A DNA stretch of 57,560 bases, counting the filler, from Circinaria calcarea (Eukaryota): assembly GCA_051942165.1 (NCBI GenBank). It is 8 parts of 8 records of this genome, joined end to end, with 100 filler letters (N's around TTAATTAATTAA, not from the genome) between each part and the next. Parts side by side here need not be neighbours in the genome. Positions count along the whole stretch, not along the records: positions 14,446 to 21,560 come from JAVECS010001406.1; 7 more parts are not named here. One strand, 5' to 3'. The notes beneath the pieces are model-generated. The model made no database searches. It was given only the letters and a program-made list of their open reading frames with translations, and was not told the DNA's origin. Of the stretch, positions 7,125-50,476 are shown in pieces. Each line of letters begins with the position of its first letter. The first letter of the stretch is position 1. A program made the position numbers and the translations under genes.

Positions 7125-7224
7125 NNNNNNNNNNNNNNNNNNNNNNNNNNNNNNNNNNNNNNNNNNNNTTAATTAATTAANNNNNNNNNNNNNNNNNNNN
7201 NNNNNNNNNNNNNNNNNNNNNNNN
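7125..7224. other. Artificial contig linker (44 N + TTAATTAATTAA + 44 N)
   Basis: Identical 100-bp spacer with stop codons in all six frames, repeated 7 times in the window. Confidence 0.98.
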
Positions 7225-14345: not shown

Positions 14346-14445
14346 NNNNNNNNNNNNNNNNNNNNNNNNNNNNNNNNNNNNNNNNNNNNTTAATTAATTA
14401 ANNNNNNNNNNNNNNNNNNNNNNNNNNNNNNNNNNNNNNNNNNNN
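14346..14445. other. Artificial contig linker
   Basis: 44 N + TTAATTAATTAA + 44 N. Confidence 0.98.
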
Positions 14446-14518
14446 CAAGGATGTCAGATTCTTCTCGGCGACTGCTACTAGTTCGGGATTTCATGTTCGA
14501 TCTCACAGAGCTACGAAG

Positions 14519-14863
14519 GTGGATCAGGAGGTCTGGATCGAGGAGGATTACCCACTCGGTTTTAAGTTTGAGGAGATCTTTACGACCCATGACGGGTACA
14601 CTCGAACAAAGGTCACCGGAATTGTCCAGAACATCTTCTTCGAATATGGTATTAAGAAACTTCTACCAGCACTGAAACAGGCTGTAATGGCCGTTTTCAG
14701 GTCATTTCAAGAAGACGCCCTTTTGCTCAACTCTCTTGGCAAACGGCCTGCAGAAGACACAATAGATACTCAGGAGTCTTCGGGCAGTCGAAGACGAACG
14801 TTTGACGATTGTCACTTCGATGAAAGCCAAGAGTCCTTGTTCGGTCAGCCGGTCTTGGCTTGA
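14519..14863 (+). CDS. Hypothetical protein, probable 3' part of a gene truncated by the contig start
   Basis: Open frame near the contig edge with protein-like composition; no recognisable motif. Confidence 0.35.
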   Translation: MDQEVWIEEDYPLGFKFEEIFTTHDGYTRTKVTGIVQNIFFEYGIKKLLPALKQAVMAVFRSFQEDALLLNSLGKRPAEDTIDTQESSGSRRRTFDDCHFDESQESLFGQPVLA

Positions 14864-15339
14864 GTACGCCTAGGTGCACAGCGTCTGGCTAGTTGGAAGT
14901 ATTGGTCTATGATGACAGATGGAGATATATGTTCCTAAGGTAGGGAGTTAGATGACTAAAGAAAACAGGAAGAAGGCATCATATTAAAGGAAGCATTTCA
15001 ACCCCGATGGCGGATAAGCTGGTGTGAAACTAAGGTTTCGACATTACCATGGTAAGCTTGCTACTGAGGAGTGGCATATGGAGAACGATCTTTACAAATC
15101 CTAGCGATATAGGAAATACTCGAGACGAGGTGGGAGAGCTCTCTACACTGAATGTGATACCCTCCGAATGGGCTATTCTGACCAATAATCTAGCAACGAG
15201 ACATTCAACACCATTATAGTGAGCTCCCCCTTAATCAAATTAGCTCAGAACAGCACAACCACCACCTCCCAAGCCACCTCCGATCCAGCTCTCCCCTCTA
15301 ATCAATAAAGGTGACCTTATCGGACCTTCAAACAGCTCA

Positions 15340-16010
15340 AGCCTCCGAGATAAAACTATTCTGGTCACCTGGGAGCGTCCGGCTGAGGTGCGGCCATCGC
15401 TAGGAATTTCGCCAAACTGGGGTAAAGCCAGCATCCCCTTGCTCTGAAAATGCAAGACTGTGGCCTGAATATCGCACAGAGCCCGAATGGCAGTCGCAGA
15501 AAACCAGAAAGAGCTGGGCAATCAGTATACAGGGAACTACGCGGCCTAGGATATCGGTGCGTTTTATCCTCTCCGGATGTTTGGACATCCTGTCCCCCTT
15601 AACATATTTTCATTTTTCCCAATCATCATCATACTAATGTACTTGTAGAGTTACAAATTCCCCCATAGATGTAACGTCTTACCTATCGCTCTTTTCCGCC
15701 TTCAAACCGCCATCGCCATCGCCACCCCTCTCCCAATCCACCCTCGACATCGTCGTCGCCTCCGCCAGCTTCGAGGAACCACCTTCTCCCTTCGCTTAGA
15801 AACCCCATTCACCCTCCCCTCTCTCACCGCAGACCCGCCTGCCCCTCCCACGTCCGGTCTGATAGAGGCAAAGCTCACCGGCCTCTATTTAACCGCTTAC
15901 AACGCCTCCAAAAGGGGTGTCCGCCGCCTCTTCCGTACTATCCATGATCCTTGGCAGAGTCTGGTATCAAGGCCAATCTGATCGCGCGGGGATGCTGGAC
16001 ACACCCACGT
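15340..16010 (+). pseudogene. Degraded short-chain dehydrogenase/reductase (SDR)
   Basis: Ordered SDR motifs broken by frameshifts and stops: KTILVT/GASG*GAAIARNFAKLG (15352-15421), DVTSYLSL, LDIVVASA, LTGLYLTA, YNASKRGVRRLFRT (15898-15940), GIKANLIA. Confidence 0.65.
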
Positions 16011-17333
16011 TGAGGGAGTGGGCGGCCATGATGCGAGAGAAGGGAAATATCTTGCCCATCGCTAGACTATTACATGTTCACCCAACAACCAGGCCATCTC
16101 GGGTGCAAGCTCCGACCACTACTTCACCATACACTTATAGAAACGCCTCAATCATGCACACGACTGCATTGACTTCATTAAAATCCTTCGGGAGGACAAT
16201 ATCTATGAACATTCTTCCAAAGTCTTGAGCTAGCGACAGGAGATGCAATGATTCCTAATCTATGACGAACAGCTTCACCGAGTCCAGCCTTGAGTAATAT
16301 TTGTGGGAAATAGGGGCCTTGCGAAGCAGTACATTATCTCGCTTTCCTTCGACGACTTTTCATATACACACACCACAAACGGGAGGTAAAGATGACATAT
16401 ACTTCCCCGCCCAAGGATTCCCGTTAATCGTCCCCATGTCGCCTCCTAGCCCTCTCCTTACTCCCGACAAAGTTTCAGTAACCTCCTTGCCATAACTCAG
16501 AATATCCGGAGAATAATTTACTTTCGATGCCAAATTATTCTCTCGCATAACGATGCGGAAATCGACTAGTACCACTACTAAGATGGTCAGCTGAGTGCGG
16601 TGCCTATACTGTACTGGTCTTAGCAGTACGAGTCACTGCACTCTGCAGATATTATCGGCGCAGCACAGCAGGTCTGCACCCTGCCAGAAGTACAACATAG
16701 AGCCAAACCATTTCCAGCGCCTCAAGTATGGAACTCACGCGCCTGAGTTCCTAAAGCAGCACGCTGCTGTGGTGGTTGGAAAGGGGGATAGGGAGGTAGA
16801 TTGGCGGTTAGATGTATAAAGCATGGGGGGGGTCTTAGATCATATATCTGCCAGAGTGGTTGAATTGGAGGAGGAATGTGCGAAGACCTGCCAGAGCTGT
16901 TTGCTCGAATTGTGTATTGGGCGTTGAATTCGGTTATCTGTAGATAAGGACTTCTGCAGTACAGAAAAGGACCAGCAACTTAACCCATCCAATCAAGACC
17001 TTCCCACATATCCCACCCTATTGACTACATGCGCACCCCCACCCTCCGCCGTCTTCCCCGTTTTTGGCCCCCCTCCTCTTTATGTCTTTCTTGAAGGGGA
17101 TGTCTCTCGTCCACCTCCAATCCCGCTCCCGCACCTACCCTATCTAGTCTCAATACCGAGCCCTAGGTACGAAACAGCTGTTGTAGCTTAGTAATATTTG
17201 GGCGAGGCTGATGCTGCTACGCCACGGAGGGTGAAGACCCGCGGTGCTCACCTCTACTAATTATAACAAGGCTACCCTCCCGATGATTGAGTACTATGAA
17301 GCCACCACCACTTCCACTAATACATGAGCGCAC

Positions 17334-19030
17334 ATGGCGACATTAGATATACATATTGACGTTCCGGCTCATCACCATCGTCAGAACTCAAGAACCGCTT
17401 TCGATAGACAAAAGGATCACGCTCGTTTTATCTTCAACAAGACAATCGCAGGACATTATCGTCATGGAAGGACGGAATACACTCGAGTTGGCGTGCTACT
17501 CATCACCTGGGATCAGGACGATATGAATCTTAAAAAGTCAGAAGTAGGTTATACGTTTCTGGCCTCAACTCTGCTTTAACATCCCACACAGGTTAGTCGA
17601 CTGCAGACGATTTTCAAAGATAGACTCCGATATGAGACCCAGGACTTTCAAATCCCCTCGACCAAATCCGAGACGTCCTTCCACCACGCCGTGTCGAGTT
17701 TCGTCAATGCGTACAACAGCCCCGATAACCTTATGATTGTATATTACGGCGGGCATGGATATAAGGGTACGGAAACGAATCAATTCAAACTCGCTGCGTT
17801 AGTCTAGACATCTCCTCCTTTACAGTGAGCATATACTCATATATTACGGGTAGTAAGGAAGAGGCGGATGGTGACGGAGACCCCAACGCGTTTTTCAACG
17901 ATATGTTCGGCTGCCTCCGACTTCCCACTACCGATATCCTCTTCATCGTCGACTGCTGCTACGCCGCTCGTGCCTTCGCTTTGGAAGGAATAGGCAGGCG
18001 GAAATTTGAGTTGATGGCATCGGCACCCCCAGACGGGTTTGTGCCATCAGCAAAAAACAAAGACTCTTTCACCCAGCGGTTGTGTGATACATTAGAAGAA
18101 ATGCTAGATACCGAAAGACATGCCAAAGGATTTCCAACTTCAGAATTGTACCGACGAATATATCACCAGACGAAACCAGATATCAAGCCGTTTCTTTTTG
18201 ATCAGTCATCATTTGATTATGGCAAGATCTGGCTTCGTCCCCATCACCAGCCGGCCGGGCCTACGAGCTCTGTAAAAAGGCCAAAGGTAACGATTGACTT
18301 GACTCTACACATGACAGATGCCCCCTCGCCTGCCGAAATGAATGATCTAGCCAGGGCGCTCCAATATATTCCGCACGTCGACAAGATAACCCTTGAGGAA
18401 TTGCATGCCCCTGCGCTGGAGCTTCAAGAATTCTTCTACGGGATGAAGAAAGCAATGCATGTCAAGAAAATAATCCACGAACTACGCCAACGCATCAACG
18501 CGAAGAAAACGGAGCAAGGATCGAACCCCAGTGGCCACGTGATAGAACCTCACTCAAGTATTCGGGTCCCCGATGTGAGTGATCAGGGCCAAGCATACGA
18601 CTGGAGCAAGGCCGAAGCATTTCTCATACCTGGAACCAAGTCGCCAGTTATCATGGCTACCGGCAAGAAAGCGGTTGGCAGTCCCCACGTTAAACACTCA
18701 ACCGAAGAGCCACCTGCGTACGAGGTGCATTATCTTTATAAATACTTCGCATTTGCATGGTCATTGGACCTAAGTGGCATCAAAGACCGCATTTCCGATA
18801 TCCGATATAAATATCCATCAGTGCTAAGTTCCCGTCATCGCGAGAGTGGTGCATCAGAAGAGATGCCGAAGGAGCTAGATGCACGAGGCCAAGGACGCAA
18901 TTTTCCTTCTGTAGTCTTTGCAGCTATGGCTGATCACGAAAAGCGGATGCAGACGCTAGACACGTTCATGTGGCTCTCGACGATTCTTGTTGGCTACGTT
19001 ATCCTTTCCCATGTCTTGGCAGAGAAGTGA
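17334..19030 (+). CDS. Caspase-like (peptidase C14/CHF fold) protein with a C-terminal hydrophobic anchor
   Basis: Exons 17334-17543, 17592-17797 and 17854-19030 splice in frame. YTRVGVLLITW; LMIVYYGGHG (His codon 17754-17756); DILFIVDCCYAA (Cys codon 17954-17956); FELMASA; SFTQRL. C-terminal FMWLSTILVGYVILSHVL. Confidence 0.82.
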
Positions 19031-19578
19031 CCTAATTTGACTCCCTATAGTACAGAACATGATACCGTGATGAGGAAGGAGCTTAGGCATTTATAGTCAA
19101 ATGCAATGAGACAAAATAGAGATTTCTCGATCATAAGAGTATAAATAACGGGATCAGGTTATGCCTAAAATTGGGAGAAATTGTATTTCGTGTAGAGGAT
19201 GCAATCATACTAACGGCGCATTATTTCTATATCGTGTTTATTTCCTATCATGGTACTGAAATGTGGGTTGGATTCCTAATGCACGATTTCAGTATTGAAT
19301 TGCAGTTCGCCCTGCAATTACCATAACGCTGGAATCTTGATCATGAAGAGTCCAGCCGCAGCCAGCCTATTGGTCTACGCCGCACACTGCCCTCTCGAGA
19401 GTGCCGTACGATTCAGCCTCGCGCGAATGCTCGACTCACATTATGGGGCCAAACTAGATAAGTATTAGATGTATAACTTGCTCCCAACGCCCAGTTCTGG
19501 TTTCGAAGACTTTCTCCACCCAAGCAGTCAAGGCACAAACCACGATCAGCCGACCAGAAGTTATCTCGAACCACTACC

Positions 19579-20010
19579 ATGATGGATCAGAGCCACCAGG
19601 TAATCGCGCCTGAGGCCCTACAGCCGCACATTACTTTCGAAGATAGCTTACGCTACACAGAGCCTCAACTCATTGGAGGCGGACCAGACGGTGATGTCCG
19701 AATCCGCAATTGAGTCCGTACAGAGCGATTCGGCAGGCCCTGACTACCGTTCACATGTTGGCCGTGGTAAAGGAGCGATGGTAGGAACGCTTTCACATCC
19801 ACTATTAAACGAAGTGATCACACTGATCGAATCATCCAGGTTCTCAATGTCTACGAGACAGGACAACAAGTCTACGTGAAGGGTGCCAGGGCTCTCAGCG
19901 GCCCATACATCATTAGGAAAGTGAATCGGGACGGAACGTACCAACTTGGGGATGCGGGCGGGAGAATTTACCGGGACAACGCAAGGGAAAGGGATTTGCA
20001 GCCTTTATGA
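19579..20010 (+). CDS. Small 103-aa protein with a C-terminal SH3/Tudor-like beta-barrel (3 exons; only exon 2 appears in the ORF track)
   Basis: Exons 19579-19599, 19661-19780 and 19840-20010 with GT-AG phase-0 introns of 61 and 59 nt. C-terminus VLNVYETGQQVYVKGARALSGPYIIRKVNRDGTYQLGDAGGRIYRDNARERDLQPL*. Confidence 0.7.
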
Positions 20011-20605
20011 GCGTGGTGCTATCTATATTCTTCGGGGAAACATGGCAGCGTATATTCGATGAATCTTGTGCTTTAATGGAAGGGGATTGGTTTCGTATCG
20101 ACTGGTAATGGCAAGGCTATTATCGCAATAGACCAATGAGATGACCATGAGGCTGCTATCCACACGTCCTCGAAACCAAGGTAAACAGCCTCGGAGACCC
20201 TCGAAACCGAAGAGGACATGATGTAGAGCGAGATCTAGCCAGGCGCCTTTAAAATTTTCGAGTCGCAAGTTAAAGATCAAGAAAATCAATGACTGGGGCG
20301 AACTGCAGCACAAATCAGACCCAGATGGATGATGAATCAATGTTGCTTTCGTGTTGTGGCTGTGAAGAGTGTAGAAATGCCTTATGGTACCGGCTGAGTC
20401 CGCCTCGGCTGAGTCTGGAACCTTGCAGTACGGAGGTATGCCCCGTATCGTCGTGCGGTTCAGCTCGACAAGGCATTTGCAATCCCCCTTCTTCATGTAT
20501 AACAAGCCTTACTCCTATCCAGTACCGTCTACGTAAGCTTGAAGAGCTCTCGGATTTTCAACTTGGCCCCCACTGAAGGGGTCTAAGTCGCGTTCCAACA
20601 CGAGG

Positions 20606-21560
20606 ATGGAGGGCCGGCCGCAGACACCTCAATCTTACCCACAAACAAGCATGCACGAGATCGATCTGGAAAAGCAAGCTGTTAATGATGGAGACGAATC
20701 TTCATCACCCGGCGGCACAACGGTTGTTAATGACTTACCTGAACCCCTCAGTAAGCAGCTCTGCTGTTTTCCCGGATTCTGGCTGAACTCTAACCCTCAA
20801 AGGTCCGTCAAAACCTGGTATAGGCCGCTCCATAACGGACTATCTTCGCAAGGTTACTCCGCCAGAAAAGTTTTCAAAGCCATGGCTGCCGCCGCAGCCG
20901 GAGGCCCCATATGATGAAGTACAACGCATAAAACGCATCGACAATCATCCCGAGGGCTATCCGCAGCTGGCAGCTCTCCTAAATACCGATGAAAACTTCC
21001 TCATGTGTCGCCGCTTTGGATTTCTCCAGCAGCGTGTGTTACTCTATCGACAGGACGAGTTACGGGACCTAGAAGACCAACTGATAAGGCTGGACGATGA
21101 GGACCGGGACGAGAATCCGAAGGCACTGAAATCGAGGAAACTTGATGATGCACGTGAAGGGAGCTACAGAATGGGATTAATACAACACATCGATGATAAG
21201 CTCGAGGAATACGGTAGAATATTCCCCACCTTCACGTCCCAGTTATGAATATCCTACTAACACACATACTCTTGAGCAGCCAAAACCATACAACGAATTC
21301 GCTATTTCTCAACCTCGAAAAGAGCCAACACTCGCAACCACAACTCTGTGAGCAACTGGCTGCACAACAATGCTCCCTTAAGCAGGGAAGAAACTGAATT
21401 TATCCACCACAAATCTGATCTTATCATGCTCTCCGATGTTGAAGAGACTGGCTGGTTTGACGGGTTTGTAGAAGACCTTCTTTCCAAGGTTCCCAATCGT
21501 TTTACCCGCCTTCTCTTCAGTACCCGAGAGCAACGGCACACGACGGACGATGCCTATGTC
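20606..21560 (+). CDS. DUF6594-type protein, truncated at contig end
   Basis: Introns 20751-20802 and ~21214-21278. IDNHPEGYPQLAALLNTDENFLMCRRFGFLQQRVLLYRQDELRDLEDQLIRLDDED, SVSNWLHNNAPL and EFIHHKSDLI match the DUF6594 N-terminal pattern. The TM helices expected for the family would lie beyond the contig end. Confidence 0.8.
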
Positions 21561-21660
21561 NNNNNNNNNNNNNNNNNNNNNNNNNNNNNNNNNNNNNNNN
21601 NNNNTTAATTAATTAANNNNNNNNNNNNNNNNNNNNNNNNNNNNNNNNNNNNNNNNNNNN
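21561..21660. other. Artificial contig linker
   Basis: 44 N + TTAATTAATTAA + 44 N. Confidence 0.98.
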
Positions 21661-21754
21661 AAATGGTGAAATGGTGAAATGGTGAAATGGTGAAATGGTG
21701 AAATGGTGAAATGGTGAAATGGTGAAATGGTGAAATGGTGAAATGGTGAAATGG
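21661..21754. repeat. Tandem 8-bp repeat (AAATGGTG) x11 plus a partial unit
   Basis: Perfect repeat read directly at the contig start. Confidence 0.95.
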
Positions 21755-28771: not shown

Positions 28772-28871
28772 NNNNNNNNNNNNNNNNNNNNNNNNNNNNN
28801 NNNNNNNNNNNNNNNTTAATTAATTAANNNNNNNNNNNNNNNNNNNNNNNNNNNNNNNNNNNNNNNNNNNN
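28772..28871. other. Artificial contig linker
   Basis: 44 N + TTAATTAATTAA + 44 N. Confidence 0.98.
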
Positions 28872-35976: not shown

Positions 35977-36076
35977 NNNNNNNNNNNNNNNNNNNNNNNN
36001 NNNNNNNNNNNNNNNNNNNNTTAATTAATTAANNNNNNNNNNNNNNNNNNNNNNNNNNNNNNNNNNNNNNNNNNNN
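35977..36076. other. Artificial contig linker
   Basis: 44 N + TTAATTAATTAA + 44 N. Confidence 0.98.
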
Positions 36077-41753: not shown

Positions 41754-42219
41754 TCTGCGCTGAGTCTGGTCACACGGATATTGGGTGTTCCGGGCATGAA
41801 TACGAATTTCTGGGATCCAAGAACTTTACGAATGTGCATATTGCGGCCATCTGTACTGAGTAACGGAGGAAGAACAGCAGTATTTTCATGGCTATTGATC
41901 CTTGTGGTACTATCGGAAGTGCATCTAGCATATGTACTAGTACCGTTGGAATCCACCCGCCCTTAATTGCAAGTATTTAAGGTGCCCATCCCCGGCGAGG
42001 TAACCTGTATGCCTGGGAAATCCGGGGTGAGATGGGGTGTAATTTCAGGCTTCGCCACAGCAACCAATCGCCCTTGTCCACCATATTCATCAACAGACAT
42101 TGGCAAGTTAGAGACTCGTGTAATATATGCTTCGAGACCCGAGGGCAGCAAAAACAAAAACATACAACAGCTGGTATTCGCTGGTGGTCACCCACCCAAT
42201 TACTAATCAGCCGATCTCA

Positions 42220-43039
42220 AGCTTATATATAGCAGAGCGGACGGGATACCCAGATATTTATATATCTTATAAAAAAGAATCTATTTTTAGAAAATAGGAC
42301 GCTGCTTTAGGCTCTTTAATATCTTTTTCGGATATTTTTAAATATTTATCCTCCGGCTGTTTTAATTATGCGTTGCCTTATAAATATAATTATTATAAAA
42401 TTATCCTAGCGACGAGAAATATAATTAAAATATAAAAAATAATATATTTACGGTATATAATTTAAAACGGCCTAATCCTCTTAAATCCATAATCGTATAT
42501 GATAAAAGAAAACCACGTTTATTTTTTTGATAAATATTTTTATTCCGATCCTCAGCGTTTAAATCGTCGTTATTTTTTCTTTATTTTTCTTTTTCTTTTC
42601 CTTTTCCCCCGTATTCGGCGTGCTGATCCGGGTGTGATCGGGCGATATATTATTCGGTGTTATATTTATCGCGCAGGAAACGAAAATAAAAATTAATATA
42701 TAAAATTTAAAAATAAAAAATTACGAAAAAAATTTAAATTAATAAATTTAATTTAATAAATACGAAGGGAATGAATTCTAAATATAATTTAAATACGTAT
42801 AAATTATAAATAATATAATTAAAATGCGTGCGCCGATGAATTATTTCTTATATAATTATAATATAAAAAATATTTTAAATTTAAAAATTAAAACGGTTAT
42901 TTATTATAGCGCTAAATTATATTTATATAAGAAATCGCGCTAGGCTCGGGATTTCGGCCACCGGTTATAAAATATAAGAAGTATAAGAAATATAAAAATA
43001 TTTACGGTATTCCGGTATTATATTCTTATACTTCTTAAA
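42220..43039. mobile_element. AT-rich, RIP-like degenerated repeat/transposon relic
   Basis: Abrupt shift to very AT-rich, TpA-rich sequence with few CpA/TpG but retained CpG (gcgtgcgccg, atcgcgc); no convincing protein-coding ORF. Confidence 0.6.
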
Positions 43040-43179: not shown

Positions 43180-43279
43180 NNNNNNNNNNNNNNNNNNNNN
43201 NNNNNNNNNNNNNNNNNNNNNNNTTAATTAATTAANNNNNNNNNNNNNNNNNNNNNNNNNNNNNNNNNNNNNNNNNNNN
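43180..43279. other. Artificial contig linker
   Basis: 44 N + TTAATTAATTAA + 44 N. Confidence 0.98.
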
Positions 43280-50376: not shown

Positions 50377-50476
50377 NNNNNNNNNNNNNNNNNNNNNNNN
50401 NNNNNNNNNNNNNNNNNNNNTTAATTAATTAANNNNNNNNNNNNNNNNNNNNNNNNNNNNNNNNNNNNNNNNNNNN
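50377..50476. other. Artificial contig linker
   Basis: 44 N + TTAATTAATTAA + 44 N. Confidence 0.98.

Follow-up and report, generated by a model that had tools for sequence, protein, structure and literature searches.

The window analysed here, a 57,560-base stretch of DNA from Circinaria calcarea (GenBank assembly GCA_051942165.1), carries on one of its contigs three consecutive genes encoding a caspase-like protease, a small Tudor/SH3-like protein and a protein of the DUF6594 family. The caspase-like protease and DUF6594 are co-inherited, and the linkage persists in distantly related fungi even where gene orientation and flanking DNA have changed. As this set of three genes is found again, and diverges in concert, in fungi far apart from one another, it probably represents one previously unstudied working unit. 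Going one step further, we tentatively propose, giving the idea slightly less than an even chance, that the trio is one co-inherited functional module of filamentous ascomycetes, which is centred on the protease and in which DUF6594 and the small barrel serve as substrate, adaptor or regulator.

Gene Trio and Its Recurrence in Other Fungi

Reading of the DNA and scripted joining of exons revealed, within positions 17334-21560 of the window, three genes in the same orientation whose GT-AG introns measure 48-66 bases. They are located on contig 3 (14446-21560, 7115 bp), derived from a metagenome-assembled genome of C. calcarea. An earlier sequence-only reading of this DNA had described three co-oriented genes spaced about 550-600 bp apart and coding for a C14-fold protease with an intact His-Gly/Asp-Cys dyad, a tiny SH3/Tudor-like beta-barrel protein and a DUF6594-type protein. 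The gene models bear out this arrangement, with gaps of 551 bp between the caspase-like and the small gene (663 bp if a later start of the small gene is used) and of 595 bp between the small gene and DUF6594. The three assignments hold as well: the protease motifs are present and Pfam PF00656 scores above its cut-off on the database protein P0001, AlphaFold2 predicts a five-stranded barrel for which Tudor, PWWP and chromo domains lead the Foldseek list, and PF20237 is above cut-off on both of the DUF6594 exons that it matches in the window.

A database search with the caspase-like protein yielded 49 proteins, with Trapelia, Lambiella, four Xylographa species (52-54% identity), Meristemomyces, Lecanosticta and Diplodia among the names, and the DUF6594 search, restricted to longer proteins, yielded 14. 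For Trapelia coarctata, the orthologues of the caspase-like gene (MMC30_006702) and of the DUF6594 gene (MMC30_006704) are both listed on a contig of 201701 bp with one gene between them. The protein P0061 of Varicellaria rhodocarpa (565 amino acids, aa) is a chimeric model comprising, in that order, the caspase N-terminus, a C-terminal piece of the caspase, the small protein and DUF6594; it is an annotation artefact revealing the same gene order as in the window.

A scan of metagenomes with the caspase alignment retrieved 54 loci (designated by L and a number), which were collapsed into 25 groups at an identity of at least 90% and whose six-frame open reading frames (ORFs) were searched with the three family profiles. 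Seventeen of the 25 groups were informative, having at least 3 kb of flank on one side. Among all 25 groups, DUF6594 was found in seven, the small gene in six and one or both in eight; for the informative groups, the figures are 7/17, 6/17 and 8/17. The gene order of the window is repeated in L007/8 and L009/10, and rearranged trios are present in L011/12, L013/21 and L043-45. The distant versions differ in that L043-45 and L050 show a divergent orientation and in that L013/21 and L033/34 contain intervening genes. Within the window clade, downstream DNA was available for three of the six groups, all three of which carry the small gene and two of which carry DUF6594, in the window order. Every small-family match with an independent E-value (i-E) below 5 in all 54 loci adjoins a caspase-like gene, and there were no marginal DUF6594 matches elsewhere in the scanned loci.

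Comparing caspase and DUF6594 identities for nine linked pairs showed correlated divergence (Mantel r 0.91, p 4e-4, 5000 permutations). Caspase and DUF6594 trees agree in nearly all groupings, i.e., (window, Trapelia), these together with L007 and L010, (L021, L044) and (L012, L034), and in the tree of the caspase core the partner-bearing loci are distributed over several deep branches. Recurrent co-localisation in other genomes, the absence of which had been named beforehand as refuting the sequence-only reading, is present in other lichen fungi as well as in metagenome contigs whose identity falls to about 25-40%, and the caspase and DUF6594 genes that are linked also co-diverge.

The Caspase-Like Protease

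The caspase-like (Peptidase_C14) gene extends from 17334 to 19030 on the plus strand (exons 17334-17543, 17592-17797 and 17854-19030), and its model encodes 530 aa. Exon 3 is 100% identical to P0001 (526 aa). At 17537-17606, the database model of P0001 uses an intron-1 donor and acceptor that differ from the orthologue-supported ones, by which four residues are lost (KNRLQ versus KKSEVSRLQ). The intron-1 acceptor chosen here gives KKSEVSRLQ, in agreement with the orthologues P0008 and P0010.

As read from the DNA, the codon of the putative catalytic His is located at 17754-17756 (plus strand) within YYGGHG, and the Asp-Cys-Cys codons (VDCCYAA) are located at 17951-17959 (plus strand), one of the two Cys being the putative nucleophile. 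In the homologue alignment A1, D168, C169 and C170 are invariant in 18/18 sequences, with conservation of 90% or more for H121; Asp-Cys-Cys is also kept in every aligned core of the metagenome loci that covers this stretch. The Pfam profile PF00656 matched P0001 with 25.2 bits versus a cut-off of 21.4, and among the other homologues it reached 25.4 (P0010), 24.5 (P0030) and 34.7 bits (P0037), with P0006 (19.4 bits) below the cut-off; exon 2 of the window alone yielded 20.3 bits. The CHAT profile of Pfam gave no match at E up to 1 among the five caspase homologues scanned, and a sequence search of the PDB using alignment A1 retrieved no protease, the sole match being at chance level (E 1). PADLOC applied to eight proteins reported one weak 'caspase' match only (P0037, E 0.0073).

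The caspase core is followed by a middle domain of approximately 80 residues (about residues 270-345 of P0001; about 18260-18480 in the window). Its consensus IDLxLxM...MNELARALQYLPHVxEIKFxxLHAPAEELQEFF (in a shorter form MNELARALQYLPHV...LHAP) is conserved across the homologues, and neither Pfam nor the PDB gave a match for it. The protein terminates with the hydrophobic segment FMWLSTILVGYVILSHVLA (18965-19021, plus strand; Kyte-Doolittle mean 1.85 over 19 residues), which is predicted to be a tail anchor. A terminal hydrophobic segment was found in 7 of the 12 caspase homologues examined and also in L010. These proteins form an uncharacterised caspase-like family with its own middle domain and with several architectures, namely, membrane-anchored (as predicted), Myb-fused and free.

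A sister subfamily (L030:10385-12043, L037:9091-10143 and L047:3006-4418) was observed in which the caspase-like domain (YYGGH, LDCCFAA) precedes a Myb DNA-binding domain. This Myb-fused subfamily has neither a DUF6594 nor a small-gene neighbour; L025 carries DUF7580 instead.

The DUF6594 Protein

The 5′ part of the DUF6594 gene (279 codons) occupies 20606-21560 on the plus strand, with exons 20606-20750, 20803-21213 and 21280-21560, and is cut by the contig end. Two window exons matched PF20237 with E 4e-19 and 1.3e-9 (69.9 and 38.7 bits versus a cut-off of 30). The full-length protein P0050 (334 aa), which is 90% identical to the window DUF6594, scored 203.6 bits against the same profile and ends with two hydrophobic helices (266-294 and 299-321, with hydropathy peaks) and a conserved KARRHEVFAATAA end. 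Both C-terminal membrane helices are absent from the window DUF6594 because the contig stops at 21560. A shared basic stretch, G-I/V-K/R-R-S-I-T-D-Y-L-R, precedes the Pfam domain in the DUF6594 orthologues, and the core exon shows 75-77% identity to Trapelia and Xylographa.

The DUF6594 stop codon was found to sit inside a consensus splice donor (GTAAGT, GTGAGT) at L010:10650-10662 and L007:9350-9362. The close DUF6594 models in the database all end with ...AATAA, and P0063 extends into a third hydrophobic stretch. This sequence pattern suggests that the models may lack a short last DUF6594 exon.

The literature searched contains no mention of DUF6594, PF20237 or IPR046529, although supplements, which were outside its scope, could list such clusters. 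The linkage of DUF6594 to a caspase-like gene appears to be undescribed in the literature searched.

The Small Tudor/SH3-Like Protein

For the small gene, the database model P0064 (102 aa) runs from 19582 to 20010 on the plus strand with exons 19582-19599, 19661-19780 and 19840-20010, and a minimal model on the same strand starts at the ATG at 19694 (exons 19694-19780 and 19840-20010; 85 aa). Positions 19840-20007 (plus strand) code for the barrel. A word-index search for small proteins of this type (30-98 aa) gave no candidate, and HMMER run against 1.84 billion representatives detected 33 relatives at E up to 1e-3. The 20 shorter ones (40-204 aa) have in common the C-terminal pattern V-Y/W-x-K-x-A-R-x-L-x-G-P-Y-x-I-x-x-V-N-x-D-G-T-Y-x-L...E-R-D-L, and many of them also carry an N-terminal P-D/E-Y/F-R-S/A-H motif. 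Aromatic residues are conserved in the family, with Y80 invariant in addition to those of GPY and VY/VW. Five long relatives were scanned, of which P0066, P0067, P0073 and P0076 are multi-Agenet/Tudor repeat proteins and P0071 is a jacalin lectin protein.

The AlphaFold2 model, built from 17 sequences, is a five-stranded barrel in which residues 52-102 have a predicted local distance difference test (pLDDT) value above 90. The top Foldseek matches were Tudor, PWWP and chromo domains, the best being the PHF20 Tudor domain (E 5.5e-3, TM 0.74 by target), and none reached 1e-3. In a Foldseek-independent search (VIA), small barrels of many kinds were matched, with Z values not exceeding 6.5. As both structure searches thus give no sharper answer, the fold label is no more specific than Tudor/SH3-like, which, on the strength of the model, is right as a fold and allows no finer assignment. 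No Pfam family, and hence neither Tudor nor Agenet, was matched at E up to 1 by the window exon, P0064, P0068 or P0072. The ESM Atlas contained no usable match for the small protein and DUF6594 (best score 0.86); an R67-DHFR cluster at 0.85 is a lead only. When caspase residues 1-345 and the small protein were modelled as a complex without alignments, the prediction received a score of 0.01 and a mark of 0.34, which speaks neither for nor against binding.

Flanking Genes, Promoter Element and Layout of the Window

A Pfam scan was performed on 85 flank ORFs from eight partner-bearing loci. The outer flanks of the window-clade loci consist of unrelated housekeeping genes that differ by locus (ERG6-like, STL11/RRM, ADH and transketolase versus rhodopsin, PNPOx and OPT). 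Gasdermin, HeLo, HET, NACHT and NB-ARC domains were not found among the 85 ORFs, and the window genes did not match gasdermin either. Three distant groups (L011/12, L013/21 and L033/34) contain a gene with protein-kinase and ankyrin-repeat domains inside or at the edge of the cluster, assigned by Pfam to L012:8003-12050 (minus strand), L021:5123-9172 (plus strand) and L034:2055-6017 (minus strand). Since the kinases of L012, L021 and L034 are just 25-31% identical to each other, a generic level for kinases, it is architecture and position that argue for a common origin of this fourth gene. Its presence in three distant clusters would fit a sensor role, as far as domain content can indicate.

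As an exploratory motif, the element CAAGGCT was detected at 17267-17273 (plus strand), 67 bp upstream of the caspase ATG, and at 20112-20118 (plus strand), within GCAAGGCT and 494 bp upstream of the DUF6594 ATG. The element, often in the form of GCAAGGCT or CAAGGCTG, is located upstream of members of the caspase-like family and of their partner genes in the window, L010, L015, L021, L030, L038, L047, L050, L051, L053 and others. CAAGGCTG is the most widespread 8-mer, present in 9 of 17 promoter windows that were separate from those used for discovery. CAAGGCT itself was observed in 10/17 independent caspase promoter windows versus 4/20 control windows (Fisher p 0.018); among the partner genes, 8 of 15 have it upstream. 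These counts weakly suggest that CAAGGCT may be a shared regulatory site by which the genes are co-regulated. The promoters of the Myb clade are possibly related by descent.

Upstream of the caspase-like gene (14447-17191), the DNA is without long ORFs. An SDR pseudogene, which the sequence-only reading had placed next to the trio, was not recovered, as nine ORFs within this interval gave no SDR match at E up to 1 (Pfam).

The window as a whole is made up of eight unrelated contigs of about 7.1 kb each, which show no mutual similarity and are joined by 14 runs of 44 N and seven TTAATTAATTAA linkers. The resulting artificial spacers N44-TTAATTAATTAA-N44, which have no strand and mark the contig boundaries, are located at 7125-7224, 14346-14445, 21561-21660, 28772-28871, 35977-36076, 43180-43279 and 50377-50476; features are not to be read across them. 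The spacer at 21561-21660 marks the end of the trio contig. The next contig opens with a perfect tandem repeat (AAATGGTG) of 11.8 copies (21661-21754), after which comes a purine-rich stretch. In contig 6, the terminal part (42001-43000) has a G+C content of 29.7% compared to about 45-55% elsewhere.

Possible Function of the Trio

In the mechanism that we propose, the core of the module would be a clan-CD caspase-like cysteine protease, predicted to be tail-anchored to a membrane in the window lineage. The constant companions of this protease would be a single-domain Tudor/SH3-like protein and DUF6594, the latter predicted to consist of a helical domain in the cytosol that is anchored by two membrane helices at the C-terminus. 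The protease would be active and would cut after Arg or Lys, as may be expected because Asp stands two residues before the second Cys, which is the arrangement of the Arg/Lys-specific metacaspases and the paracaspase, with Gln at this position in caspases. The candidate substrates are one or both of two similar basic regions, namely, the disordered N-terminal stretch of DUF6594 (G-I/V-K/R-R-S-I-T-D-Y-L-R) and the motif P-D-Y-R-S-H-V-x-R-x-K-G in the small protein; the small barrel might act as adaptor or regulator. Cleavage would then switch the state of the membrane protein DUF6594, with cell death, signalling or organelle control as candidate outputs. Taking the genes, their family assignments and the congruent divergence of protease and DUF6594 as the observed basis, we infer that the trio is best read as a proteolytic switch that is inherited as a unit and acts on a membrane protein.

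Several points weigh against this reading. Neither partner was found in 9/17 informative groups, including the Myb-fused clade. L005/6 contains the caspase and the small gene with no DUF6594 found within 10 kb, and L033/34 and L050 contain the caspase and DUF6594 with no detectable small gene. All seven DUF6594 genes lie at most 6 kb from the caspase gene, and the internal control for this proximity is modest (P 0.024, or 0.078 with loci alone). If the loci are single orthologues, each from a different species, correlated distances and matching trees would be expected from the species tree alone. With respect to the proteins, the support for the caspase fold consists of a Pfam score barely over the cut-off plus the motifs. 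The AlphaFold2 model of DUF6594 (11 sequences), all-helical and with two terminal membrane helices predicted, has a mean pLDDT of 53.5 and is thus poor. The type of protease tail also differs, being hydrophobic in the window and L010 and basic (KRQR-type) in L005 and L007; because of this variation, a membrane common to all versions is not general.

The sequence-only reading had taken the cluster for a candidate protease-gated cell-death or immune cassette, in which a triggered protease would cleave DUF6594, a non-gasdermin executioner that damages the membrane, with the small barrel as adaptor or sensor and allorecognition as a possible role. Its C14, Tudor/SH3-like and DUF6594 calls and the co-localisation stand, whereas allorecognition is weighed against because the genes are well conserved, DUF6594 strongly so, the window-clade flanks are housekeeping genes, and NLR, HET and gasdermin neighbours are missing. 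The clusters of fungal gasdermins with proteases, as described in the accessible parts of PMC8851545 and PMC12881547, offer a precedent by analogy for the cassette as a whole; the predicted membrane anchoring of DUF6594, the conserved linkage and the kinase-ankyrin gene in the clusters of L011/12, L013/21 and L033/34 would suit it too. On the other hand, none of the five death- and immunity-related domains was met in the 85 flank ORFs of the eight loci, the window-clade flanks are housekeeping, PADLOC gave no match except for the weak caspase on one of eight proteins, and the DUF6594 core exon, 75-77% identical to other orders, is unlike fast-evolving recognition genes. Overall, we consider a death or immune cassette unlikely. 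We would likewise give little weight, if some, to its furthest-reaching version, in which DUF6594 would be an unrecognised family of membrane executioners or switches controlled by an ancient caspase-like protease via a Tudor-like adaptor, with a kinase-ankyrin sensor in some lineages. If true, this would amount to a second, gasdermin-independent pathway of protease-gated death or immunity in filamentous fungi, clustered over deep evolutionary time.

Alternatively, the trio might be a signalling or nuclear switch, in which the protease would free the cytosolic helical domain of DUF6594 or process a chromatin-linked target, with the Tudor-like protein reading a methylated or other mark; the idea can be likened to the regulated release of membrane-bound regulators. 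The barrel fold resembles Tudor, chromo and PWWP readers, and by sequence the small protein has matches to the repeat units of multi-Agenet/Tudor proteins, to which four of the five scanned long relatives belong. Moreover, the sister subfamily of L030, L037 and L047 has its caspase-like domain fused to Myb, the caspases of L005 and L007 carry basic KRQR-type tails and no membrane anchor, and high conservation in housekeeping surroundings would suit a cellular rather than a conflict role. However, to read the basic tails as nuclear is guesswork, the small protein matches neither the Tudor nor the Agenet family of Pfam, its barrel is a very common fold for which the best Z is 6.5, and DUF6594 has no recognisable DNA-binding or activation domain. 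We regard this alternative as quite improbable.

A similarly slim chance is given to inherited gene order with no functional coupling, which holds that three unrelated genes were never separated and that their correlated divergence is that of the species tree. The closest cases (Circinaria, Varicellaria and Trapelia) are all named as lichen-forming fungi, which belong to one class. In addition, the distant loci may be orthologues rather than paralogues, in which case species history could yield both the Mantel correlation and the congruent trees, and the absence of both partners from 9/17 informative groups points in the same direction. Yet the trio persists while the outer flanks differ among L005, L007, L010 and the window, and the linkage outlasts inversions and insertions where the caspases are just 25-40% identical. 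The small family is rare, with 33 members among 1.84 billion representatives, yet it stands beside the caspase in six groups and nowhere else in the scanned loci; a shared promoter element (CAAGGCT) is suggested as well. Changed flanks, rearrangements and the rarity of the small family are hard to square with unlinked functions. A single gene, as the chimeric model P0061 had prompted us to consider, was rejected, as a stop codon ends each complete window gene, the gaps amount to about 550-660 bp, and L011/12, L013/21 and L043-45 have the genes on opposite strands.

For DUF6594, which is without a functional lead in the literature searched, the stable partnership with a caspase-like and a Tudor-like protein provides a testable hypothesis, that is, cleavage and its consequence. 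Should the module turn out to control death or signalling, it would add to the kinds of protease-gated switches known from eukaryotes; otherwise, it would still be a clean case of selection for gene linkage.

Comparison with Known Systems

The window gene is a clear member of the Pfam family DUF6594 (PF20237). With the Royal family (Tudor, Agenet, chromo, PWWP), the small protein shares a five-stranded barrel of about 50 residues and sequence matches to the repeats of multi-Agenet/Tudor proteins. Unlike members of that family, it has no Pfam Tudor or Agenet match, is free-standing (85-113 residues) and has its own conserved basic N-terminal motif. Among other SH3-like barrels, KOW, R67 DHFR and NdhS are also fitted at a Z of about 6.

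Metacaspases and the paracaspase (clan CD, C14) resemble the protease described here in the motif order of His-Gly followed by Cys and in the Peptidase_C14 match above cut-off, and its D-C-C likewise puts Asp two residues before Cys. In contrast to them, it matches no solved metacaspase, caspase or paracaspase sequence at E up to 1. Two further differences are the middle domain (about 80 residues) and the C-terminal membrane anchor predicted in this lineage, and a prodomain of the metacaspase type was not seen in the protease.

Conserved non-metabolic gene clusters are, to our knowledge, rare in fungi, and the best-known ones encode cell-death and immune pathways. The closest comparison is with the gasdermin/protease clusters. 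According to the accessible part of PMC8851545, 63% of 1884 fungal gasdermin genes have an S8 protease gene within 10 kb and 19% have a gene for a caspase-related CHAT protease within that distance, and fungal gasdermins are activated by cleavage. The same part describes clusters of two or three genes, some with repeat or kinase-like sensor parts. A term search of the available portion of a paper on fungal NLR effector domains (PMC9815663) found no mention of caspase, C14, Tudor or transmembrane. The system in the window differs from the gasdermin clusters in its partner, which is no gasdermin but DUF6594, a protein predicted to consist of helices only and to carry two membrane helices at its C-terminus. 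Its protease matches Peptidase_C14 rather than CHAT or S8 and has no repeats or NOD domain. Further differences are the third, Tudor-like gene, the good conservation of the genes and the location of the window-clade loci amid housekeeping genes. What it has in common with het-Q1/het-Q2 of Podospora anserina, as far as the accessible part of PMC8851545 describes these, is a protease gene, in the gasdermin clusters sometimes caspase-related, that stands beside the gene for a membrane-acting protein in filamentous fungi. In the present case, this clustering of a protease gene with that of a predicted membrane protein is recurrent as well, with DUF6594 in 7/17 groups and in Varicellaria, Trapelia and the window.

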